A stretch of DNA of 64,000 nucleotides from Squalus acanthias (lineage: Eukaryota), in contig CM059432.1 in assembly GCA_030390025.1 (NCBI GenBank), positions 3,348,001 to 3,412,000 of the forward strand, given 5' to 3'. Each line of letters opens with the position of its first letter. The stretch's first letter is position 1. Below the pieces are notes generated by a model that saw only the letters and a program-made list of their open reading frames with translations, had not been told where the DNA came from and did no database searches. The position numbers and the translations under genes are program-made. Shown one piece after another: positions 13,204 through 47,557 of the stretch.

Positions 13204-13494
13204 GTTGTTGTAGGTTTTACACTTGAAATGTTGACCTGTTTCAAGTTGTTGATGGGCCTGCTTTGTATTTCCAGCATGTTCCCTCATTATTGTCCTGTTT
13301 AATGTGTACCACTTGTCGTACCCACGGGCACCTGTCTCTTTTAGTTACGGCCACACCTTGGCTATAAGACACATTAACAACCGCTTAGCACAAGAGTCTG
13401 CGGGGGGGGGGGGGGGGGGAAATAGAAGTAGCGTAGAATGAGAAATTGTGTCGAACACACTATGTGCATCTCAAAAAAGAGAGGTACACATCCT

Positions 13495-14222
13495 CTCTAG
13501 GATTCCCCTCTACCGTGGTCGACACGGCCCTCGACCGTGTCCGTTCTATCTCCCGCACATCTGCCCTCACCCCTGCCCCTCCCTCCCGGAACCACGATAG
13601 GGTTCCCCTTGTCCTCACCTTTCACCCCACCAGCCTCCACATTCAACGGATCATCCTCCGCCATTTCCGCCACCTCCAGCGTGATCCCACCACCAAACAC
13701 ATCTTCCCCTCACCTCCCCTTTCAGCATTCCGCAGGGACCGCTCCCTCCGCGACACCCTAGTCCACTCCTCTACCACCCCCAGCACCCCTTCCCCTTCGC
13801 CCGGCACCTTCCCGTGCACGCGCAGGAGATGCAACACATGCCCTTATACCTCCCCTCTTCCCACTGTCCAGGGCCCCAAACACCCCTTCCAGGTGAAACA
13901 GCGATTTACTTGTACTTCCTGCAATTTAGTATACTGTATTCGCTGCTCACGATGTGGACTCCTCTACATTGGGGAGACCAAACGCAGATTGGGTGACCGC
14001 TTTGCGGAACACCTCCGTTCAGTCCGTAAGGGGGACCCCGAGCTCCCGGTGGCCTGTCACTTTAATTCACCGCTTCACTCCCACTCTGACCTCACCGTCC
14101 TCGGCCTAATACACTGTTCCACGGAAGCTCAGCGTAAGCTCGAGGAACAGCACCTCATCTTTCGTTTAGGCACGCTACAGCCCTCTGGACTCAATATCGA
14201 GTTCAACAATTTTAGATCATAA
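13495..14222 (+). CDS. PLE polyprotein C-terminus: linker, Cys motif and GIY-YIG endonuclease (no start codon; truncated)
   Basis: Open frame with RVPLVLTFHP, CTRRRCNTC, VYCIRCSRCGLLYIGETKRRLGDRFAEH, LEEQHLIFRLGTLQPSGLN. Confidence 0.88.
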
Positions 14223-14489
14223 CCTCAGCTCCCATCACATTTATATTTTATTTTATCCACCCTTTTATTTGTCCCCCCCACCTTTTTTTTCCCTCCTAGA
14301 AGCTGGCAGCTGTCCTTCATTCTGCCAGTAGATTTCACACTTCATTCAGCCTTAATCTGTCACATTAACACCACCTCTAGCTCTTAATGTCTCTTAATGT
14401 CTCTTCATCTCCTCTTTTGTTCCTTTATCCCCTCCCCCTTTTCCCAGCTTTACTCTGGCCTTAAATCTATTTGATTTCCAGCTCTTCCC

Positions 14490-14526
14490 AGTTCTGATGA
14501 AAGGTCATCGACCTGAAACGTCAACT
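14490..14526 (+). ncRNA. Minimal type I hammerhead ribozyme (PLE-associated)
   Basis: agtt-CTGATGA-a-aggtc(atc)gacct-GAAA-cg-TC-aact: helix I agtt/aact, helix II aggtc/gacct, palindromic ACGT helix III, predicted GUC cleavage after 14522. Confidence 0.8.
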
Positions 14527-15752
14527 CTCTTTCTCTCTCCACGGATGCTGCCTGGCCTGCTGAGTTTTTCCAGCGTTTTCTGTTGTTAGTACACATCCTA
14601 GCTCTGGGGTATGATTCGATGAATAAAGTATTGACCTTAAGTGCAGTTATCTATTTTAGGTTCTCATTTTACAACTTCCCAGCCTCCGATTTCAACACAA
14701 TGCTCGTGTCTAGTTGCTACGCTGTTGTCGCATACCTCCCCTCCCCTGTTCTGTAGCTTACACTGCCACCATGGTCTTAAAATTACATCTAATTAAGCCG
14801 AGATGAATGGAACTGTCTGAAATGTGCCCTTAAAAAAAAACCCGGCAGGAATTATAAGATGCTCGCTCTTAATAGCAGGCTGGGTCCTTCGGGTCCAGTG
14901 AGCTCCACTGGAAACAATACAGCATTCAGTCCCCCCGCTTTGCATACAGGGGGTGGGTCGAAGGTTATTCACATTGCAAAATCCTTCAGTGAGTCTTCAC
15001 AAAGGGACTAAACAGTATGTGGTCTACTTTGTTAGCATTAGAACAGCCCATTCATAGCGTGTGATGGGAGCCAAATTCTCCTCTTCTCCAACCCTTCCCC
15101 CCCTCCCCTCAACCACCTTACTGGGTTTTTAAAAAATTCCTGAGGGACACTAGCCAGCAACTCCACCTTTTGAAATGCATCCTTCAATTATCCGATTCCC
15201 CCATCATTTCTTTTCGGAGAAGATCAATTTCCATGTCACGGCGACAAAGTGGAGATGAAAGACGGGCTGTGGGTGGGGTGGGGTGGGGTGGGTGGGGGGG
15301 GGGGGGGGGGGAGAGGAGAGCAGACAAAGGCACTTGCATTTGCGTGAACTAGGCCGCATGATAAAGAGCAGTCTAAGCCCTCGTCACGTGAGCAGGAATC
15401 AATGCGCAATCAAGGTTCGAGAACTGGCAAAATACTCACGCCTGAAAAAACTCCGCACTGAACAAATGTTACTTTACCTCATGGCAGTACTAAAAGGGAT
15501 AATTGCGGGGGGGGTTAACAATCTAAAATCCCGCCTACCCCCCACCCCACCCCACCCACCATCTAACCTGGAATATTTTACCAGCCAGAGCTCTCAGCTC
15601 GCCAACTTGGTGGGACGTACTCCTGAGGTTTCACTGCATGACAACTTACATTTATATAGCGCCTTTAACGTAGTAAAACGTCCCAAGGCGCTTCACAGGA
15701 GCGATTATCAAACGAAATTCGACACCGAACCGCGCAAGAAGATATTAGGGCA

Positions 15753-15982
15753 AAAATAACAGAAAACGCTGGAAAACTCAGCAGGCGAGGCAGCATCCGT
15801 GGAGAGAGAAACAGAGTTAACGTTTCAGGTCGAAGACCTTTCGTCAGAACTGTCCTTTCGTTTCGACCTGAAACGTTAACTCTGTTTCTCTCTCCACCGA
15901 TGCTGCCTGGCCTGCTGAGTTTTTCCAGCGTTTTCTGTTGTTATTTCGGATTTCCAGCACCCGCAGTATTTTGCTACCGTAC
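15753..15982. mobile_element. Fold-back PLE mini-element (inverted terminal repeats)
   Basis: Inverted arms about 15755-15833 and 15861-15945; TSD gatattagggca / gatattggggca (15741-15752, 15983-15994). Confidence 0.85.
15815..15851 (-). ncRNA. Minimal hammerhead ribozyme
   Basis: Reverse complement agtt-CTGACGA-a-aggtc(ttc)gacct-GAAA-cg-TT-aact. Confidence 0.75.
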
Positions 15983-16679
15983 GATATTGGGGCAGGTGAC
16001 CAAAAGCTTGGTCAAAGAGGGAGGTTTTAAGGAGCCTCTTAAAGAGGAGCGAGAGGTGTAGCGAGGCGGAGAGGAGGGAATTCCAGAGCTCGGGGCCCAG
16101 GCAGGTGAAGACACGGCCGCCAATGGTGGAGCGATGAAAATCCCGCCTCCAACCGACCCACACAGCAGCCTTTTCTCCCCCTCCCACCGTCCAAAACTTT
16201 TATAACGGATAAACAAAGAAAATGGAAAAATAAATGTTTAATTCCCCTTATGATTTTTGCTCTCCCGCGGGGCGCTCGCAGCAGGGGGGGGATTAACCTT
16301 AAATTCCTGGAGGCTCCGGGGGCAACCCCGCCAAGCTCTCCATTTAATAATCCGCAGGCAGGTTGACTAGGAGCAGAATGTCGGCTAAATTAACCTTTCA
16401 ATTGAACGGCTAGAAGATACACGGAGAGAGAGAAAAAGACGTTTAATTAACGCTCAATGCTACCTTACAAAGGACAGTATATTTTGCATGCAATCTACAT
16501 CAAAACCACAATCGGATGCGGTGAACCGGTGGAACCCAGCAGTAGTCTTTGTTCCTCGTGTTAAACGGGTTACACGGCTCGAAGAAAGGCATGCTCAACA
16601 GCCACTCTCTTATCAGGACCAATTGTTCTCCGTCAAGACAATTCATTCCATCGGAATTTGAAACACTTCCTCCAAGAGA

Positions 16680-23700: not shown

Positions 23701-24542
23701 GATGGCATCAATGTAGAATCTGCTCGAAGAAATAAATCGGGGCCACGGTTTCCACAGCAGCCGGAGAGGCAGCTGGTGCTAGAGCGATTCACCAATATAA
23801 ATGCATCATTAACATTTGGACAAAGTTCACATCAAGGATTCAACTCGCTAGCAAGAGAGGGAGAGGGGCTGTACTTGAGGCTCTTGCAAATGACCCGGTT
23901 GAATAAATCGTGTCCATATTCACCTTGTAAACATTCCCAATATCCTCAACTGTGCAAATCCATACAAGGATTTCGCTCCTTTTATACAGATACCAATTTA
24001 AAATGATGCATTACTTCAATAATTAGCTTTGCAGCAGAATACACTTTACATTACAAATATTCTACAAAAGGCAAGCTGGGATCTAATTCCACGGAGGGCT
24101 ATCGAGCAGTGCGTTCCATTTCATCTTCACACTCTTGTGGCTCAGTGGGCAGCACTCTCTCTCTCTCTCTCGCCTCCGAGTCAGAAGGTCGTGGGTTCAA
24201 GTCCCACTCCAGGGACTTGAGCACAAAAATCCAGGCCGACACTCCCAGTGGAGTGCTGAGGGAGCGCCGCACTGTCGGAGGTGCCGTCTTTCGGATCAGA
24301 CGTTAAACTGAAGTCACGTCTGCTCTCAGGTGGACTTAAAAGATCCAACGGCCACTATTTCGAAGCAGAGCCGGGGGCGGGGGGAGAGTTCTCCCCGGTG
24401 TCCTGGGGCCAATATTCATCCCACAATCAACATCACTAAAACAGATACAATAGCAAAATACTGCGGATGCTGGAGATCCGAAATAACAGAAAACGCTGGA
24501 AAAACTCAGCAGGCCAGGCAGCATCCGTGGAGAGAGAAACAG

Positions 24543-24579
24543 AGTTAACGTTTCAGGTCGAAGACCCTTCGTCAGAACT
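24543..24579 (-). ncRNA. Minimal hammerhead ribozyme (minus arm)
   Basis: Reverse complement agtt-CTGACGA-agggtcttcgacct-GAAA-cgTT-aact. Confidence 0.75.
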
Positions 24580-24865
24580 GAGAAAAAAAGCAGGAAATGG
24601 AATAGATTTTAAAGCAAGTTTAGGGGCTGGGAAAAGGGGGAGGGGATGAAAGAACAAAAACTTCATCGAGAGCCATCCTTTGTTCCTTAACCTGTCCCAT
24701 TACCACCTCCTCTTGCCTTGAATATCTCTTAATGTCTCTCAATGTCTCTTAATCTCTCCTGCTTTCTATCCTATCACTGACCTTCCCTTTTGTTCTTTCA
24801 TCCCCTCCCCCTTTTCCAAGCCCCTAAACTTGCTTTAAAATCGATTTCATTTCCTGCTTTTTTCC

Positions 24866-24902
24866 AGTTCTGACGAAGGGTCTTCGACCTGAAACGTTAA
24901 CT
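24866..24902 (+). ncRNA. Minimal hammerhead ribozyme (plus arm)
   Basis: agtt-CTGACGA-agggtcttcgacct-GAAA-cgTT-aact. Confidence 0.75.
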
Positions 24903-25267
24903 CTGTTTCTCTCTCCACGGATGCTGCCTGGCCTGCTGAGTTTTTCCAGCGTTTTCTGTTGTTATTTCACTAAAACAGATTAATCTGGTCATTATCACAT
25001 TGCTGTCCGTGGGAGCTTGCTGTGCACAAATTAGCTACATTACAACAGTGACTACACTTCAAAAAGTACTTCATTTGCTGTAAAGCACTTTGGGACCTCC
25101 AGAGGTCACGAAAGACTCTATAGAAATGCAAGACTTTAAAAATAAATTGAACGCCAATTCCTATTCTTTCTGTACTGTATACGTTTCACACTAATCAACT
25201 TTCTGAAGTGCACCTTTATCTTGAGATCAAGTAGAGATTGGGGTCAATGTAGTTTTCAAGTATTTAA

Positions 25268-25770
25268 GAATTAGGAGCAGGAGTCGGCCATTCGGCCCCT
25301 CGAGCCTGCTCCACCATTCAATAAGATCATGGCTGATCTTCGACCTCAACTCCACTTTCCCGCCCGATCCCCATATCCCTTGATTCCCCATGAGTCCAAA
25401 AATCTAACCATCTCAGCCTTGAATATACCCAACGACTGAGCATCCGCAGTCCTCTGGGGCAGAGAATTCCAAAGATTCACAACCCTCTGAGTGAAGAAAT
25501 TCCTCCTCATCTCAGTCCTAAATGGCCGACCCCTTATCCTGAGACTATGCCCCCGAGTTCTAGACTCTCCAGCCAGGGGAAACAACCTCTCAGCATCTAC
25601 CCTGTCGATCCCCTCAGAATCTTATATATTTCAATGAGATCACCTCTCATTCTTCTAAACTCGAGAGTATAGGCCCAATCTACTCTATCTCTCCTCACAG
25701 GACAACCCTCTCATCCCAGGGATCAATCTAGTGAACCTTTGTTGCACCACCTCCAAGGCAAGTATATCCT
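25268..25770 (-). mobile_element. CR1 3' fragment
   Basis: ORF 25346-25585 TRGHSLRIRGRPFRTEMRRNFFTQRVVNLWNSLP. Confidence 0.9.
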
Positions 25771-25849
25771 TGATTCACTTAATATTTGTTTTTGAACACT
25801 TAAAAAAAAGTAACCATTTGACTTCTAAAAGCAATGCAAGGTAACCCTA

Positions 25850-26270
25850 TACCAGGTTGAGCCTATACTCATTGGAGTTTCGAAGAATGAGAGGTGATCT
25901 TATTGAAACATAAGATTCTGAGGGGGCTCGACAGGGTGGTTCCTCTGAGAGGATGTTTCCCCTAGTGGGGGAATCTAGAACTAGGGGGCATAATTTCAGA
26001 ATAAGGGGTCGCCCATTCAAGACGGAGATGAGGAGGAGTTTCTTCTCTGAGTGTCGTGAATCTTTGGAATTCTCTACCCCAGAGAGCTGTGGAGGCTGGG
26101 TCATTGAATATATTCAAGGCGGAGATAGAGAGATTTTTGAAAAACAGGGGAGTCAAGGGTTATGGGGAGCGGGCAGGAAAGTGGAGTTGAGGCCAAGATC
26201 GGATCAGCCATGATCATATTGCAGGCTCGAGGGGCCGAACGGCCGACTCCTGCTCCTATTTCTTACGTTC
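25850..26270 (+). mobile_element. CR1 3' fragment, head-to-head with the previous one
   Basis: ORF 25953-26213 TRGHNFRIRGRPFKTEMRR. Confidence 0.88.
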
Positions 26271-32640: not shown

Positions 32641-33210
32641 TTGGTGAGACCTCACCTGGAGTACTGCATATAATTTTGGTCTCCTTACCTAAGCAAGGAT
32701 ATACTTGCCATAGAGGGAGTGCAACGAAGGTTCACGAGATTGATTCCTGGGATGGCGGGACTGTCGTATGAGAAGAGATTGAGTAAACTAGGCCTGTATT
32801 CTCTTGAATTCAGAAGAATGAGAGGGGATCTCATTGAAGCATACAAAATTATTACAGGGCTTGATAGGATGGATGCTGGGAGAATGTTTCCCTTGACTGG
32901 AGAGTCTAGAACCAGGGGCCACAGCCTCAGGATAAAGGGTAGGCCATTCAGGACTGAGATGAGAAGAAATTTCTTCACTCGGAGGGTGGTGAATCTTTGG
33001 AATTCTCTACCCCAGAGGGCTGTGGAGGCTCAGTCATTGGGTATATTCAAGACAGTAAGTCGATAGATTTCTGACTAGTAAGGGCATCAAGGGATATGGC
33101 GATAGGGCCGGTGAATGGAGTGGAGGCAGAAGATCAGCCATGATCTCAGTGAATGGCGGAGCAGGCTCGAAGGGCCGAATGGCCTACTCCTGCTCCTATT
33201 TCTTATGTTA
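32641..33210 (+). mobile_element. CR1 3' fragment inside a Deu-SINE (32560-32640 + 34588-34720)
   Basis: ORF 32719-33066 with CR1 motifs. Confidence 0.9.
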
Positions 33211-34587
33211 TAGATACATAGATACATAGAAGATAGGAGCAGGAGTAGGCCATCCGGCCCTTCGAGCCTGCTCCGCCATTTAATGAGATCATGGCTGATC
33301 CTCCAATTCAGTATCCCGTCCCCGCCTTCTCTCCGTAACCCTTAACCCCTTTTGCCTGTAGAAATATATCTAATTCCCTCTTAAATATATTTAATGAGCT
33401 GGCGTACACTGCCCTCTGTGGCAATGAGTTCCACAGGTTCACCACCCTCTGAGTGAAGAAATTCCCCCTCATTTCTGTCCTAAATGGTTTAGCCCTTATC
33501 CTTAAATTATGTCCTCTAGTTCTGTTCTCACCCGCCAAGGGAAACATTCCTTCTGCATCTAGTCTGTCTAGACCGGTCAGAATTTTATACACTTCTATGA
33601 GGTCCCCTCTCAATCTTCTAAACTCCAGTGTGTACATCCCTAAACTACATAGTCTCTCCTCATAGGTCAATCCCGCCATTCCTGGTATCAGCCTGGTGAA
33701 TCGCCGCTGCACCCCCTCCATGGCAAGAACATCTTTCCTCAGATGAGGCGACCAAAACTGTACACAGTACTCGAGGTGTGGTCTCACCAGTGCCCTGTAC
33801 AGCTGCAGCAAGGTATCCCTGTTCCTGTATTCCAACCCTTTTGCTATGAAGGCCAGCATACCGTTTGCCTTCTTGATCGCCTGTTGCACCTGCATGCTCG
33901 CCTTCAGTGACTGGTGTACAAGAACACCCAGGTCTCTCTGTACTTCCCCCTCTCCCAATTTATTGCCATTTAAATAATAATTTGCCCTCCCGTTCCTGCA
34001 CCCAAGGTGGATAACTTCGCACTTGTCCACATTATAGTGCATCTGCCATTTATCCGCCCAATCACCCAGTCTGTCCAAATCGCTCTGGAGCTTCCTGGTC
34101 TCCTCCTCTGAGCCCACCCCCCCCTCCTAGTTTAGTGTCGTCTGCAAATTTGGAAATGCTGCATCCGACTCCCTGATCCAGGTCATTAATGTAAATTGTG
34201 AACAGCTGGGGACCCAGGACAGATCCCTGTGGTACCCCACTTGTTACTGCCTGCCATTCAGAAAATGAGCCGTTTATTCCAACTCTCTGTTTTCTATCTG
34301 ACAGCCAGTTCTCTATCCACGTCAATACTTTCCCCTTTATCCCATGAGCTTCAATTTTCCCTGCTAATCTTTTATGTGGGACCTTATCGAAGGCCTTTTG
34401 GAAGTCCAGGTACACCACATCTACTGGCTCTCCCCCATCTATTTTACCAGTTACTCCCTCAAAAAATTCCAATAGATTAGTCAAGCACGATTTACCCTTT
34501 GTAAATCCATGTTGACTCTGTCCTATCCTGTCCCCATTTGCTAAGTGCTCCGCTATTTCACCCTTAATGATGGACTCCAGCATGTTC
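33211..34587 (-). mobile_element. CR1 RT region plus tail, one frameshift, tail-to-tail with the previous copy
   Basis: ORFs 34062-34583 ([26 protein letters not shown]) and 33308-34117 are joined by a shift in a homopolymer near 34115-34125. Confidence 0.93.
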
Positions 34588-37769: not shown

Positions 37770-38482
37770 GGAGAGGGGGGGGGGGGGGAGGAGAAGACGG
37801 AGGGGGGGGGAGACGGAGGGGGGAGGGGGGGAAGACGGAGGGGGGAGGGGGGGAAGACGGAGGGGGGAGGGGGGAAGACGGAGGGGGGAGGGGGGAAGAC
37901 GGAGGGGGGAGGGGGGAAGACGGAGGGGGGAGGGGGGAAGACGGAGGGGGGAGGGGGGAAGACGGAGGGGGGAGGGGGGAAGACGGAGGGGGGAGGGGGG
38001 AAGACGGAGGGGGGAGGGGGGAAGACGGAGGGGGGAGGGGGGAAGACGGAGGGGGGAGGGGGGAAGACGGAGGGGGGAGGGGGGAAGACGGAGGGGGGAG
38101 GGGGGAAGACGGAGGGGGGAGGGGGGAAGACGGAGGGGGGAGGGGGGAAGACGGAGGGGGAGGGGGGAAGACGGAGGGGGAGGGGGAAGACGGAGGGGGG
38201 AGGGGGGAAGACGGGAGGGGGAGAGGGGGGGAAGACGGAGGGGGGAGGGGGGAAGACGGAGGGGGGAGGGGGAAGACGGAGGGGGAGGGGGGAAGACGGA
38301 GGGGGGGGGGGGAAGACGGAGGGGGGGGGGGGAAGACGGAGGGGGGGGGGGAAGACGGAGGGGGGGGGGGAGACGGAGGGGGGGGGAAGACGGAGGGGGG
38401 GGGAAGACGGAGGGGGGGGGGAAGACGGAGGGGGGGGGGGAAGACGGAGGGGGGGGGGAGACGGAGGGGGGGGGGGGGGGAA
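37770..38482 (+). repeat. G-rich 20-21-bp minisatellite, unit ~ggggggaagacggagggggga
   Basis: More than 30 tandem aagacgga-containing units seen directly. Confidence 0.95.
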
Positions 38483-38483
38483 G

Positions 38484-40459
38484 GTAGAGAGAGAGAGAGA
38501 GAGAGACACAGACAGAGAGAGAGAGAGACACAGACAGAGAGAGAGAGAGACACAGACAGAGAGAGAGAGAGACACAGACAGAGAGAGAGAGAGACACAGA
38601 CAGAGAGAGAGAGAGACACACACAGACAGAGAGAGAGAGAGACACACACAGACAGAGAGAGAGGAGAGACACACAGACAGAGTGAGAGAGAGAGACACAC
38701 AGACAGAGAGAGAGAGAGAGAGAGACACACACAGGACAGAGAGAGAGAGAGAACACACAAGACAGAGAGAGAGAGAGACACACACAGACAGAGAGAGAGA
38801 GAGACACACACAGACAGAGAGAGAGAGAGACACACACAGACAGAGAGAGAGAGAGACACACACAGACAGAGAGGGAGACACACACAGACAGAGAGGGAGA
38901 CACACACAGACAGAGAGGGAGACACACACAGACAGAGAGAGGGAGAGACCACCACACAGACAGGAGAGGAGAGAGAGACACACACAGACAGAGAGAGAGA
39001 GGAGACACCACACAGAGAGAGAGAGAGAGACACAGACAGAGAGAGAGAGAGAGACACAGACAGAGAGAGAGAGAGGACACAGACAGAGAGAGAGAGAGAG
39101 ACACAGACAGAGAGAGAGAGAGACACAGACAGAGAGAGAGAGAGACACAGACAGAGAGAGAGAGAGACACAGACAGAGAGAGAGAGACACAGACAGAGAG
39201 AGAGAGACACAGACAGAGAGAGAGAGAGACACAGACAGAGAGAGAGAGGACACAGACAGAGAGAGAGAGAGACACAGACAGAGAGAGAGAGACACAGACA
39301 GAGAGAGAGAGACACAGACAGAGAGAGAGAGACACAGACAGAGAGAGAGAGGACACAGACAGAGAGAGAGAGGACACAGACAGAGAGAGAGAGGACACAG
39401 ACAGAGAGAGAGAGACACAGACAGAGAGAGAGAGACACAGACAGAGAGAGAGAGACACAGACAGAGAGAGAGAGAGACACAGACGAGAGAGAGAGACACA
39501 GACAGAGAGAGAGAGACACAAACAGAGAGAGAGAGACACAAACAGAGAGAGAGACACACAGACAGAGAGAGAGAGAGACACAGACAGAGAGAGAGAGAGA
39601 CACAGACAGAGAGAGAGAGACACAGACAGAGAGAGAGAGACACAGACAGAGAGAGAGAGAGACACAGACAGAGAGAGAGAGACACACAGACAGAGAGAGA
39701 GAGAGACACAGACAGAGAGAGAGAGAGACACAGACAGAGAGAGAGAGAGGACACAGACAGAGAGAGAGAGAGACACAGACAGAGAGAGAGAGACACAGAC
39801 AGAGAGAGAGAGACACAGACAGAGAGAGAGAGAGACACAGACAGAGAGAGAGAGACACAGACAGAGAGAGAGAGAGACACAGACAGAGAGAGAGAGAGAC
39901 ACAGACAGAGAGAGAGAGACACAGACAGAGAGAGAGAGAGACACAGACAGAGAGAGAGAGACACAGACAGAGAGAGAGAGAGAGAGACAGACAGAGAGAG
40001 AGACACAGAGAGTGAGACACAGACAGAGAGAGAGAGACAGAGAGAGAGACACACACACAGACAGAGAGAGAGAGAGACACACACAGACAGAGAGAGAGAG
40101 AGACACAGACAGAGAGAGAGACACAGACAGAGAGAGAGAGAGACACAGACAGAGAGAGAGAGAGAGACACAGACAGAGAGAGAGAGAGAGACACAGACAG
40201 AGAGAGAGAGAGAGACACAGACAGAGAGAGAGAGACACAGACAGAGAGAGAGAGAGACACAGACAGAGAGAGAGAGAGACACAGACAGAGAGAGAGAGAG
40301 CACAGACAGAGAGAGAGAGACACAGACAGAGAGAGAGAGACACAGACAGAGAGAGAGAGAGACACAGACAGAGAGAGAGACACAGACAGACAGAGAGAGA
40401 GAGACAGACAGACAGACAGAGAGAGAGACAGACAGACAGACAGAGAGAGAGAGACAGAC

Positions 40460-40492
<33 letters not shown>

Positions 40493-40796
40493 GAGAGAGA
40501 GACACACACACAGAGAGTGAGACACAGACAGACAGAGAGAGAGAGACACAGACAGAGAGAGAGAGAGACAGAGAGAGAGAGAGACACACACAGACAGAGA
40601 GAGAGACACACACAGACAGAGAGAGAGAGACACACACAGAGAGAGAGAGACACACAGACAGAGAGAGAGAGACACACAGACAGAGAGAGAGAGAGAGACA
40701 CACAGACAGAGAGAGAGAGAGAGACACACAGACAGAGAGAGAGAGAGAGACACACAGACAGAGAGAGAGAGACACAGACAGACAGAGAGAGAGAGA
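38484..40796 (+). repeat. Compound (GA)n-CACAGACA tract, ~2.3 kb
   Basis: Seen directly; almost no T on the plus strand. Confidence 0.97.
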
Positions 40797-41115: not shown

Positions 41116-42315
41116 TGCCCGGCAGCGAAACAGTAAATGTGTGTTTATTTGTAACTTTTTGGTCAAGTAGCCATCAAGCCCAAGGACCAACATGTGACCT
41201 GCAGTCAGGTAACACAAGACCAACGCTATGGAAACCAGGCAGCACTAACACAGGTCTTGCACAGTATAAAAATACCGCTACCACCTGCAGTTACATATGT
41301 CTTTATCTCTCAAATGTGTAAAACAATGAAGTCACTGCCGCTGTGGCAGATAGGCAAACCTGGCAGCCATTTGAACTCAGCAACGTTCCTCCAATTTAAG
41401 AAAGATTTGCATTTCTATCGCGTCTTTCATGACCTCAGGACGTCCCAAAACGCTTTACTGCCAATGAAGTACTTTTGAAGTACCAACACTGTTGTAATGT
41501 AGGAAACGCAGTGGACAATTTGCGCACAGCAAACTCCCACAAACAGCAATGTGATCAGATCTCAAGAATTAGGAGCAGGAGTCGGCCACTTGGCCCCTCG
41601 AGCCTGCTCCGCCATTCAATAAGACCATGGCTGATCTTCGACCTCAACTCCACTTTCCCGCCCGATCTCCATATCCCTCGATTCTCCTAGAGTTCAAACA
41701 TCAATCAATCTCAGCCTTGAATATACTCAAAGACTCAGCATCCACAGCCCTCTGTGGTAGAGAATTCCAAAGATTCTCACACCCTCTGAGTGAAGAAATT
41801 CCTCCTCATCTCAGTCCTAAATGGCGACCCCTTATTCTGAGGACTGTGCCCCCTGGTTCTAGACACTCAGCCAGGGGGAAACAACCTCTCAGCATCTACC
41901 CTGTCAATCCCCCTCAGAATAATGACCAGATAATCTGTTTTTGGTTATGTTGGTTGAGGGATAAATATTGGCCAGGACACCAGGGAGAGCTCCCCTGCTC
42001 TTCTTTGAAATAGTGGCCGTGGGATCTTCTACATCCACCCGAGAGCGCAGACGGAAGCCTCGGCTTAACCGAAAGACGGCACCTCCGACAGCGCAGCTCT
42101 CCCTCAGCACTGCACTGGGAGCGTCAGCCTAGATTTTTTGCGCTCGAGTCGCTGGAGTGGGACCACTCTGAAGGATAGCCAAGCGTGATTGGACGCATTC
42201 CCCGAGAAGTTTCACTACGCGGCCTCCTGCCACTCACACTACCGATCGCCTCAATCTTCCATCCTCGCGGCCAGACTCGCCTTCCTACACCAAGACTCTT
42301 CATTACCCAATTGGA

Positions 42316-42782
42316 GCGTAAGCTCGAGGAACAGCACCTCATCTTTCGTTTAGGCACCATACAGCCCTCTGGACTCAACATCGAGTTCAACAATTTTAGA
42401 TCATAACCTCGGCCCCTATCACATTTATATTTTATTTTTTCATCCACCCTTTTGTTTGCCACCCCCCTTTTTTTCCCTCCCAGAAGCTGGCAGCTGTCCT
42501 TCATTCTGCCAGTGCATTTCACACTTCATTTAGCCTCAACCTGTCACATTAACACCTCCTCTTGCCTTGATCATCTCTTAATGTCTCTCTATATCTCTTA
42601 ATCTCTCCTTTTGTTCTTTCATCCACTCTCCCTTTTCCCAGCCCCTAAACTTGCTTTAAATCTATTTCATTTCCTGCTTTATCCAGTTCTGACGAAGGGT
42701 CTTCGACCTGAAACGTTAACTCTGTTTCTCTCTCCACGGATGCTGCCTGGCCTGCTGAGTTTTTCCAGCATTTTCTGTTATT
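42316..42782 (+). mobile_element. PLE 3' fragment with hammerhead (42685-42721) inserted in a MITE (about 42170-43000); duplicated at 46137-46608 (hammerhead 46508-46544)
   Basis: RKLEEQHLIFRLGTIQPSGLNIEFNNFRS; ttgga duplicated at 42311-42315 and 42783-42787. Confidence 0.85.
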
Positions 42783-43194
42783 TTGGATAATTCTTGACTT
42801 GTCTGTCAAACTGCTTCCTCCCCAATCTCCAATTTTATTTTAATATAACCAATCAACAAGGGTTCAATGAAAAAAAAATTTTTTTTATTTTTAAATGCCC
42901 CCTATGATTTTTCTCTCGGTGTTGTCGGAGACATGTCCTGGAGATTAATCTTCGATTCCTGGAGGCTCCAGGGCAATCCTGGGGGGCTGGACACCCCCAG
43001 CTCAAACTGCAGGTTAATTGATCAGTTAATCTATTTTTGGATTGGGGGGGGGGGGGGGGGGGGGGGAGGTGGTTAACGGAGGATTTTTTTTTTGTGGCCA
43101 GGACACCACTTCTTCAAACAGCCGCTCTCTTTAATGTTCACTTCGGGTATGTCACGCAGCTGATATCGACCCACTATCCACGGACGGAATCTTG

Positions 43195-43420
43195 ACCCAA
43201 CAGCAGAGGTCCCCTGGCTTCGACCTCCTGCGGAGACAGCGGACGGCGCTCAACCCAGTCCGCACAGGGGCCACGGGTGATGCGGCCGCCCGCTCCACAA
43301 GTGGAAGATGAGGGGCGGACCGAAGCGCGACGGTTCGAGTCCCGGACTGTGGAACACATCACATCAACCTGCCCACTCAGATCTGTGGTGGGAGGCACCT
43401 CAGGAGGCCATCGAATGGAC
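43195..43420 (+). pseudogene. Degenerate Vingi/Ingi-like LINE C-terminus (copy at about 47005-47230)
   Basis: With two frameshifts reads DPTAEVPGFDLLRRQRTALNPVRTGHG*CGRPLHKWKM...RTVEHITSTCPLR, resembling the PGFDLPR..W..LNR.RTG.G.C...C.CG..QT..HI...CP zinc-knuckle end. Confidence 0.55.
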
Positions 43421-43744
43421 AGCCAAACCAGACATCCCATAATAAGCTTTCCCCCCCGTCACACGTAACAACAACTATACTCCCGGTAACCACCGGAATA
43501 GGCAAATGGGCTGGACTAAAAACCGTACCATCATGCTCACTGATCACCGACACGCCCAACAACGCACAGCCCTGAAGCGTGAGCCGAGATTTTGTACTCC
43601 AGTGCAGGAGTGGCGCTTAAACAGCCATCCGACTCCGAAGCAAGAGTGAATCAAACGGACACTTAGCTTTCAAAATATTCCGTGCAACATTGCTGATGGT
43701 GCAATGAAAACCTCAACTACTGTTTATGCTCTTACACAAGAACA

Positions 43745-44015
43745 TAACATAGAAACATAGAAACATAGAATCTAGGAGCAGGAGTAGGCCATTCGGCCCG
43801 TCGAGCCTGCTCCGCCATTCAATACGATCATGGCTGATCATCCAAATCCAGTACCCTGTCCCTGCTTTAATCCCCACAGTACACATATCCCACCCTACCC
43901 CCATAACCCCACGTATTTAATTCCCCCTAACATATCCCATCCTATCCCCATAACCCCACATATTTAATCCCCCCTAACACTAAGGGTCAATTTATCATAG
44001 CCAAATCAACCTAAC
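43745..44015 (-). mobile_element. V-SINE new-tail variant running into the gap
   Basis: Near-identical to the reverse complement of about 11163-11426. Confidence 0.88.
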
Positions 44016-44938: not shown

Positions 44939-47557
44939 TGCCCGGCAGCGAAACAGTAAATGTGTGTTTATTTGTAACTTTTTGGTCAAGTAGCCATCAA
45001 GCCCAAGGACCAACATGTGACCTGCAGTCAGGTAACAAGACCAACGCTATGGAAACCAGGCAGCACTAACACAGGTCTTGCACAGTATAAAAATACCGCT
45101 ACCACCTGCAGTTACATATGTCTTTATCTCTCAAATGTGTAAAACAATGAAGTCACTGCCGCTGTGGCAGATAGGCAAACCTGGCAGCCATTTGAACTCA
45201 GCAACGTTCCTCCAATTTAAGAAAGATTTGCATTTCTATCGCGTCTTTCATGACCTCAGGACGTCCCAAAACGCTTTACTGCCAATGAAGTACTTTTGAA
45301 GTACCAACACTGTTGTAATGTAGGAAACGCAGTGGACAATTTGCGCACAGCAAACTCCCACAAACAGCAATGTGATCAGATCTCAAGAATTAGGAGCAGG
45401 AGTAGGCCACTTGGCCCCTCGAGCCTGCTCCGCCATTCAATAAGATCATGGCTGATCTTCGACCTCAACTCCACTTTCCCGCCCGATCTCCATATCCCTC
45501 GATTCTCCTAGAGTTCAAACATCAATCAATCTCAGCCTTGAATATACTCAAAGACTCAGCATCCACAGCCCTCTGTGGTAGAGAATTCCAAAGATTCACC
45601 ACCCTCTGAGTGAAGAAATTCCTCCTCATCTCAGTCCTAAATGGCTGACCCCTTATTCTGAGACTGTGCCCCCTGGTTCTAGACACTCCAGCCAGGGGGA
45701 AACAACCTCTCAGCATCTACCCCGTCAATCCCCCTCAGAATAATGACCAGATAATCTGTTTTTGGTTATGTTGGTTGAGGGATAAATATTGGCCAGGACA
45801 CCAGGGAGAGCTCCCCTGCTCTTCTTTGAAATAGTGGCCGTGGGATCTTCTACATCCACCCGAGAGCGCAGACGGAAGCCTCGGCTTAACCGAAAGACGG
45901 CACCTCCGACAGCGCAGCTCTCCCTCAGCACTGCACTGGGAGCGTCAGCCTAGATTTTTTGCGCTCGAGTCGCTGGAGTGGGACCACTCTGAAGGATGGC
46001 CAAGCGTGATTGGACGCATTCCCCGAGAAGTTTCACTACGCGGCCTCCTGCCACTCACACCACCGATCGCCTCAATCTTCCATCCTCGCGGCCAGACTCG
46101 CCTTCCTACACCAAGACTCTTCATTACCCAATTGGAGCGTAAGCTCGAGGAACAGCACCTCATCTTTCGTTTAGGCACCCTGTAGCCCTCTGGACTCAAC
46201 ATCGAGTTCAACAATTTTAGATCATAACCTCGGCCCCTATCACATTTATATTTTATTTTTTCATCCACCCTTTTGTTTGCCACCCCCCCCTTTTTTTCCC
46301 TCCCTGAAGCTGGCAGCTGTCCTTCATTCTGCCAGTGCATTTCACACTTCATCTAGCCTCAACCTGTCACATTAACACCTCCTCTTGCCTTGATCATCTC
46401 TTAATGTCTCTCTATATCTCTTAATCTCTCCTTTTGTTCTTTCATCCACTCTCCCTTTTCCCAGCCCCTAAACTTGCTTTAAATCTATTTCATTTCCTGC
46501 TTTATCCAGTTCTGACGAAGGGTCTTCGACCTGAAACGTTAACTCTGTTTCTCTCTCCACGGATGCTGCCTGGCCTGCTGAGTTTTTCCAGCATTTTCTG
46601 TTGTTATTTTGGATAATTCTTGACTTGCCTGTCAAACTGCTTCCTCCCCAATCTCCAATTTTATTTTAATAACCAATCAACAAGGGTTCAATGAAAAAAA
46701 ATTTTTTTTTATTTTTAAATGCCCCCTATGATTTTTCTCCCGGTGTTGTCGGAGACATGTCCTGGAGATTAATCTTCGATTCCTAGAGGCTCCAGGGCAA
46801 TCCTGGGGGGCTGGACACCCCCAGCTCAAACTGCAGGTTAATTGATCAGTTAATCTATTTTTGGATTGGGGGGGGAGGGGTGGTTAACAGAGGATTTTTT
46901 TTTGTGGCCAGGACACCACTTCTTCAAACAGCCGCTCTCTTTAATGTTCACTCCGGGTATGTCACGCAGCTGATATCGACCCACTATCCACGGACGGAAT
47001 CTTGACCCAACAGCAGAGGTCCCCTGGCTTCGACCTCCTGCGGAGACAGCGGACGGCGCTCAACCCAGTCCACACAGGGGCCACGGGTGATGCGGCTGCC
47101 CGCTCCACAAGTGGAAGATGAGGGGCGACCCGAAGCGCGACGGTTCGAGTCCCGGACCGTGGAACACATCACATCAACCTGCCCACTCAGATCTGTGGTG
47201 GGAGGCACCTCAGGAGGCCATCGAATGGACAGCCAAACCAGACATCCCATAATAAGCTTTCCCCCGTCACACGAAACAACAACTATACTCCCGGTAACCA
47301 CCGGAATAGGCAAATGGGCTGGACTAAAAACCGTACCATCATGCTCACTGATCACCGACACGCCCAACAACGCACAGCCCCGAAGCGTGAGCCGAGATTT
47401 TGTACTCCAGTGCAGGAGTGGCGCTTAAACAGCCATCCGACTCCGAAGCAAGAGTGAATCAAACGGACACTTAGCTTTCAAAATATTCCGTGCAACATTG
47501 CTGATGGTGCAATGAAAACCTCAACTACTGTTTATGCTCTTACACAAGAACATAACA
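44321..47557 (+). repeat. Copy 2 of the duplication (GA tract 44321-44603 plus 44604-47557)
   Basis: Colinear with about 40520-43749. Confidence 0.95.

Follow-up and report, generated by a model that had tools for sequence, protein, structure and literature searches.

A 520-bp fold-back insert of two truncated PLE ends in Squalus acanthias, with a minimal hammerhead motif on each strand

In complex insertions of endonuclease-bearing (EN+) Penelope-like elements (PLEs), a 5'-truncated copy sits inverted at the 5' end, and a tail of 30-40 bp is often confined to one end; the study that describes them calls the formation of PLE tandem and inverted structures unresolved (PMC8557442). Inverted pLTRs with short extensions are presented as routine in PLEs (PMC8969392), and Pen2a_Av shows an inverted pLTR with a 31-bp tail and a 9-bp target-site duplication (TSD; PMC3846280). 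A CX2-5CxxC linker marks the Neptune and Nematis types, and Penelope and Poseidon have no such linker (PMC8557442). In Schistosoma, dual minimal hammerhead motifs (min-HHRs), about 100-700 bp apart and on opposite strands, are read as truncated PLEs (Cervera and De la Pena 2014, PMC4209133); the same account reports no cleavage by single minimal motifs and low cleavage by dimers. The protein of the Anolis PLE PAc nicks and extends both strands and has two start sites, whose spacing is the tail; its ribozyme is inactive without the protein and dispensable for insertion in vitro, and in the cited portion of that study no RNA-seq ends are reported at the cut site (PMC11167929). Non-LTR retrozymes, by their published descriptions, consist of units repeated head to tail, carry at least two hammerheads on one strand and release circular RNA (PMC7229834; preprint 10.64898/2026.07.22.740005).

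The window, that is, the whole stretch of 64,000 nucleotides analysed, shows an insert of 520 bp (24447-24966) within a repeat which, from its Pol III A and B boxes, we take to be SINE-like. The repeat content resembles what is typical of a cartilaginous fish. The insert is formed by two 5'-truncated PLE ends, placed head-to-head, with a tail on one of the arms. The locus contains:

24130-25140, plus strand: host repeat, interrupted by the insert, with an A box at 24138-24149 and a B box at 24194-24204
24433-24446, no strand: left TSD, 14 bp (12-14 bp, as 2 nt on the right side overlap the end of the element)
24447-24659, minus strand: short arm, a 5'-truncated PLE end of 213 bp including the tail, reading leftwards
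24447-24481, minus strand: tail of 33-35 nt, placed by alignment, short arm only
24543-24579, minus strand: minimal type I hammerhead motif, which if folded would be expected to cut between 24547 and 24546
24659-24660, no strand: head-to-head (5'-to-5') junction, 0-1 nt of microhomology, filler absent
24660-24966, plus strand: long arm, a 5'-truncated PLE end of 307 bp with a tail-less 3' end
24660-24787, plus strand: loop of 128 bp, more of the long arm's 3' UTR and templated from family sequence
24866-24902, plus strand: minimal type I hammerhead motif, GTT triplet at 24896-24898
24967-24980, no strand: right TSD

The left and right copies of the TSD, TCACTAAAACAGAT, are identical at 14 of 14 positions; the first two bases of the right copy (TC) match the element too, which gives a TSD length of 12-14 bp. 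Random pairs of positions 521 bp apart, with a slop of 5 on either side, show a flanking repeat of at least 12 in none of 2969 cases and of 11 in one of 2969. The rejoined empty site is crossed unbroken, with the target present once, by 13 of the 18 BLAST matches among the host-repeat copies of the window (two of the 13 come from one duplicated segment), and, because the rejoined flanks, with one 14-mer, are unbroken in paralogous copies, this is a genuine insertion into the host repeat. Eight of the 15 contig joints listed, out of 1290, are empty-site joints with sides of 18-37 letters; they most likely derive from paralogous host-repeat copies and give no sign of polymorphism at the locus. 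The longest ATG ORF in the insert has 60 aa and the longest stop-free frame 66 aa. Around the insert, ARAGORN found no tRNA gene, and a search for a host gene, run on 141 of the 161 frames of at least 45 aa that are mostly unique and on one further frame (142 in all), gave a single Pfam match, a LINE endonuclease fragment; short exons would escape this search. Two other regions, 33162-33270 and 25270-26000, contain inverted pairs of another abundant repeat, presumably CR1-like LINE 3' ends, which form long hairpins, and a G-rich 21-mer array of about 3 kb, followed by an AG/AC microsatellite-like tract, occupies 37804-40796.

Three other copies of the same PLE family are found in the window, one of them duplicated:

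13484-14599, plus strand: non-inverted 5'-truncated copy of 1.09 kb, 11-bp TSD, tail absent, with an uninterrupted ORF end containing the linker and GIY-YIG
15741-15994, no strand: second fold-back, an insert of 230 bp (15753-15982) with a 12-bp TSD (11/12 identical) and the tail on one arm
42315-42783, plus strand: non-inverted copy with the last ORF codons, the 3' UTR and the motif, duplicated at about 46.1-46.6 kb

The arms of the insert are 86.5% identical to the 14.5-kb copy with GIY-YIG and 94-95% identical to that at 42.6 kb, which adjoins the end of the ORF. Their terminal sequence is linked to the GIY-YIG ORF: they align with the copy at 14.3-14.6 kb, which continues from a PF01541 match (E 1.1e-4, 22.9 bits, cut-off 22.6) in the 13484-14599 copy, and also with the copy at 42.3-42.8 kb, which holds the ORF end. 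The frame at 13437-14219 shows a CX4CxxC linker, CTRRRCNTC, at residue 127, and two cysteines inside GIY-YIG, VYCIRCSRCGLLYIG; these are seen in the related copy, not in the insert. By the criterion in PMC8557442, the linker and the two cysteines point to a putative EN+ PLE of Neptune or Nematis type as the source. PLE reverse transcriptase is absent from the copies in the window, and the Neptune-type label comes from the linker motif. The copies at 42.3 and 46.1 kb count as one insertion because they lie within a direct duplication of 2.56 kb (41200-43749 and 45023-47557; 2557 columns, 97.9% identity), which is either a true tandem or the result of placing two haplotypes next to each other in the assembly. 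A gap of 305 N, at about 44.0-44.3 kb, and long AG/AC-rich repeats are found near this duplication. Summed contig depth reaches 10^6 on the arms vs 3.5 on the unique flank (runs X2 and X6), a sign that the family is very abundant, with depth giving no copy number. The comparison covered four of 21 runs, all of contigs; run X16, which may be RNA, shows no cover on the unique flank, and this speaks neither for nor against transcription.

The arms align at 24482-24659 and 24788-24963 over 178 columns with 96.07% identity, and differ at six places: three substitutions, two 1-nt indels and one 3-nt indel. One arm carries the tail in the insert, as at 15.8 kb, and the copies ending at about 14588, 42782 and 46609 lack it, so that both fold-backs (2/2) and neither of the independent non-inverted insertions (0/2) show it, in a small sample of four insertions in all. 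The initial annotation had described, from the letters alone, a 520-bp insert of PLE origin with a perfect 14-bp TSD, inverted arms of about 180 bp, no ORF and a terminal extension, found on a single arm in this insert and at 15.8 kb and lacking in the non-inverted copies; the coordinates, the TSD identity and intact empty site, the alignments, the ORF lengths and the match of the arms to copies carrying the GIY-YIG ORF end bear out this description. Loose ends of family contigs in run X6 cluster at 24967-24969 (455, 295 and 335 records), and the other tail-less copies in the window end within a few bases of the end of the long arm; ending without the tail at this point is common to the whole family. 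Both outer ends of the insert sit at the two usual 3' end positions of the family, and the outer limit of the tail is read, by analogy with the Anolis element (PMC11167929), as a probable distal start site of reverse transcription. Near the tail-less end the arms differ in length by GTT/GTTGTT (24954-24966 vs 24481-24491), as do the arms of the 15.8-kb copy and the copies at 42.8 and 46.6 kb, and this difference may stem either from slippage that has recurred or from two templates at the source. Just past the hammerhead begins a short open frame, with MLPGLLSFSSVF at its start (24506-24447, minus strand; 24920-24966, plus strand), which extends across the tail and could mark where the PLE ORF begins, as happens in other pLTRs.

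The loop aligns with the 3' UTR of the 14.3-, 42.5- and 46.3-kb copies and is covered by very many family contigs. A family contig of run X1 aligns at 24660-24751 and departs from the window sequence exactly at 24660; therefore the loop is templated and the junction lies between 24659 and 24660. An internal junction had been marked earlier: it exists, and it is best drawn one base to the left of that mark, at 24659/24660. At 24646-24667 a 6-bp stem, GATGAA/TTCATC, surrounds it, from a hexamer found twice in the 3' UTR. The junction of the 15.8-kb fold-back is unlike it and shows a 9-nt filler resembling nearby sequence; that copy contains one whole and one half hammerhead motif, and both of its breakpoints are at or in the motif.

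Long inverted repeats, lack of an ORF and a flanking duplication would also be expected of a MITE-like DNA transposon or of a fold-back artefact of assembly or library, readings to which we give next to no credence: the inverted repeats are PLE 3' ends, offset by 33-35 nt on one side and not flush, the TSD length varies among the family insertions (11, 12 and 14), which fits target-primed insertion, and an artefact would not yield non-identical arms or paralogues with an intact empty site. Two successive insertions, the later one landing inverted at the 5' end of the earlier, would account for arms that differ at six places and are hardly credible either, given a single TSD that encloses both arms, the absence of another duplication where they join and the recurrence of the one-TSD layout at 15.8 kb; moreover, the two substitutions of the right arm (24818 and 24843) are rare in the family, fitting later mutation. 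The MITE, the artefact and the two sequential insertions were rejected on the offset PLE ends, the one TSD, the variable TSD lengths and the intact empty site.

The two hammerhead motifs are mutually identical and 286 bp apart. Both arms show AGTT-CTGACGA-A-GGGTC-TTC-GACCT-GAAA-CG-T-T-AACT: a 4-bp helix I (AGTT/AACT), the core CTGACGA...GAAA, an extra A, a 5-bp helix II with a G.U base at 10.1-11.1, a CG palindrome which replaces helix III, and a GUU triplet. Compared by hand with the text of PMC4209133, they show the CUGANGA and GAAA boxes, the short helix I, the extra base and the palindromic 15.2-16.2 without helix III of min-HHRs; the numbering of the minus-strand cut was likewise set by hand from the description given there. 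The G10.1-C11.1 pair of min-HHRs was not found: both arms show G.U, and the 14.5- and 15.8-kb copies show A-U. Rfam gave no hammerhead family among 12 matches at E<=1 or two at E<=10. Sub-threshold miRNA matches in Rfam fall on the 33162-33270 hairpin, and the miRNA-family matches were rejected as generic hairpins below the gathering score. A canonical type I hammerhead was also rejected, as helix III is absent, the minimum free energy structure is an inactive hairpin and no curated model matches. The claim of complete, intact hammerheads on both strands is thus correct in the positions and overstated in the wording, since the motifs are minimal, without helix III or an Rfam match. The nearest same-strand motifs outside the insert are 8.7 kb away on the minus strand and 10.4 kb on the plus strand.

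Folding was predicted at equilibrium and with protein absent. For the lone motif the prediction favours an inactive hairpin at -9.1 kcal/mol vs -5.9 for helices I and II; a same-strand dimer of two motifs, from one hand-written structure only, reaches -8.5 kcal/mol vs -22.9 for the inactive dimer. Helix II has a predicted probability of 0.24-0.46 in a lone arm or in a non-inverted copy, and in the whole insert, on both strands, the predicted probabilities of helix I and helix II are 0.0 and mean pairing with the opposite arm comes to 0.999-1.0. Whichever strand is read, the complement comes first and the sense motif follows in the downstream arm. The annotation had proposed that any read-through transcript meets a ribozyme and also forms a long hairpin. 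The first part finds no support, as a transcript would contain the complement before the sense motif, for which more than 99% pairing with the opposite arm is predicted; the second holds in silico, with a predicted long hairpin of about -340 kcal/mol. If transcribed through, the insert RNA would form a dsRNA stem of about 180 bp, a property generic to any inverted repeat. Because the motifs would be masked by the opposite arm, no self-processing and no unit-length or circular RNA is predicted, and one motif per strand cannot release unit-length RNA. Pol III terminates at four or more T, and the plus-strand motif is preceded by T runs at 24607 (4), 24788 (4), 24812 (4) and 24858 (6); transcription by Pol III from the host repeat would run into these four before reaching the motif. 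The ribozyme motifs of the insert are most likely inactive passengers.

We read the insert as the dead-on-arrival product of one integration of an EN+ Neptune-type PLE by dual priming, with a probability of roughly 0.8. A single integration with two primings in opposite orientation had been suggested at the outset, and it agrees with the one shared TSD, the tail on the short arm and the loop continuous with the tail-less long arm. The GIY-YIG endonuclease would nick both strands, 12-14 bp apart, and each 3'-OH would prime reverse transcription on a PLE terminal repeat, in two RNAs or in the two pLTRs of a tandem RNA. One priming would take place at the proximal start site, giving the tail-less end, and the other about 35 nt further out, giving the tail. 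Both cDNAs would stop early, after 307 and 213 nt, and would then be end-joined. The hammerhead motifs, at about 65 nt from the PLE 3' end, are for that reason present in the insert and would be carried along as passengers of that end. In L1 twin priming both target nicks prime reverse transcription, which leaves an inversion inside one TSD, and the two cDNAs span different parts of one RNA. The insert differs in that both cDNAs span the same 180 nt; therefore two templates or a tandem template would be needed. The two-strand nicking and extension known from Anolis concern a Poseidon element in vitro, and the joining of two cDNAs is not demonstrated in the cited portion of that work (PMC11167929).

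The same dead-end product might have arisen by self-priming, in which an antisense template or first cDNA folds back and is copied into the sense arm and the tail, and the endonuclease then resolves and integrates the hairpin. A model of this kind is proposed in PMC3846280 for head-to-head PLE repeats with junction palindromes; here the 6-bp GATGAA/TTCATC stem flanks the junction, and other listed junctions of the family are near-palindromic within the hammerhead. However, the would-be snap-back 3' end, TCTCGATGAAGT, is unlike the needed ACTGACCTTCCC, no complement is present at the start of the short arm, and the loop has 128 nt. A simple snap-back of the target-primed first strand is a poor fit because the tail-less arm cannot template the tail and the cDNA end is unpaired; a target-primed first strand without the tail would call for an extra trimming step. 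In the model of PMC3846280 the intermediate is free and the endonuclease trims it afterwards. We consider self-priming unlikely.

Whether such a fold-back propagates as a unit bears on the choice, left by the annotation, between a self-propagating ambisense element and a dead-end product; the latter is the best explanation, and the former has no support in the window, where two fold-backs show two different junctions and two different TSDs. The 23-nt junction is found once in the 64-kb window at up to five mismatches. Family patterns gave no matches in viral, metagenome and genome contig collections, which is no surprise for a repeat of vertebrates. In the contig tables, which list 32 of 328,260 pieces and 15 of 1290 joints, three of these 15 are other arm-to-arm junctions inside the hammerhead: 24574>24872, with a depth of 894.6 in run X2, 101 in X6 and 41.1 in X1, and 24561>24875 and 24561>24903, with 623.5 and 641.9 in X6. 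Their peak depth is about 175-250 times that of the unique flank, and none is the junction of the insert; they have sides of 25-27 letters, 88% likeness and one to three contigs per run, and such joints are often repeat-derived. A carrier repeat holding multi-copy junctions, a hairpin that makes this site a junction hot spot, or hairpins formed in the library could each explain them.

A self-propagating non-coding ambisense element would have both strands transcribed, would be primed at the PLE ends by the protein of an autonomous element and would rebuild the same junction from complementary cDNAs. Each strand of the insert does terminate in a PLE 3' end, pLTRs alone are described as enough for mobilisation in trans in a rotifer (PMC3846280), and the three high-depth joints could be counted in its favour, but these joints differ from the junction of the insert, have short sides and carry a contig depth that gives no copy number. 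The junction is single in the window and the second fold-back differs; the ribozymes are minimal, one per strand and, by prediction, masked; no minus-strand promoter was identified, and the plus-strand Pol III boxes are followed by the four T runs before the motif. For this insert we hold such an element to be extremely improbable. The broader proposal, that some PLE fold-backs of the lineage are re-mobilised whole and form an ambisense non-coding retroelement family with the insert as one member, is a long shot; if it were true, the high-depth hammerhead junctions would be such families, or the hairpin would set the points at which cDNAs stop and join. Main texts of the open-access literature searched report no self-propagating PLE fold-back; supplements may list such structures.

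As a dead-end product of dual priming, the insert would have a value that is mechanistic and modest: within 500 bp, tiny fold-backs keep a record of where both primings and both truncations took place and of how far apart the nicks were, and a genome-wide tally of them could separate dual priming from self-priming. Junctions common to independent loci would make a new kind of non-coding retroelement, and nothing in the present analysis demonstrates this for the insert.

The insert is already known in kind, as both its layout and opposite-strand pairs of minimal hammerheads are in print. It shows the 5' truncation, the adjacent inverted copy, the one-end tail and the TSD of EN+ PLE insertions, and resembles those of Arkhipova et al. 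2013 and Craig et al. 2021, with a head-to-head truncated copy, a one-sided tail and a variable TSD (PMC3846280, PMC8557442); its tail of 33-35 bp and TSD of 12-14 bp compare with the 31 and 9 bp of Pen2a_Av (PMC3846280). Unlike the EN+ PLE insertions described in the cited portions of these studies, both copies are truncated past any ORF and the junction shows no long palindrome. As in the metazoan PLE min-HHRs (PMC4209133), the motifs have a short helix I, the extra base and the 15.2-16.2 palindrome, and form a pair 286 bp apart; unlike them, they show G.U at 10.1-11.1 instead of the conserved G-C and a helix II of 5 bp, and are known here from sequence. The insert shares with metazoan retrozymes (Cervera and De la Pena 2020; Li et al. 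2026) its short length, its non-coding nature, its PLE derivation and the type I motif; a non-LTR retrozyme was rejected, as the insert is head-to-head, with one minimal motif per strand, predicted to be masked, and no same-strand pair. In mechanism the insert resembles PAc, an Anolis PLE of Poseidon type (Frangieh et al. 2024, PMC11167929), in which both strands are nicked and extended and the tail equals the distance between two start sites; the family of the insert differs from PAc in having the CX2-5CxxC linker, and the mechanism proposed here would be transferred by analogy. By these comparisons the insert is real and well preserved, an ordinary PLE leftover and a clean textbook example of its kind.
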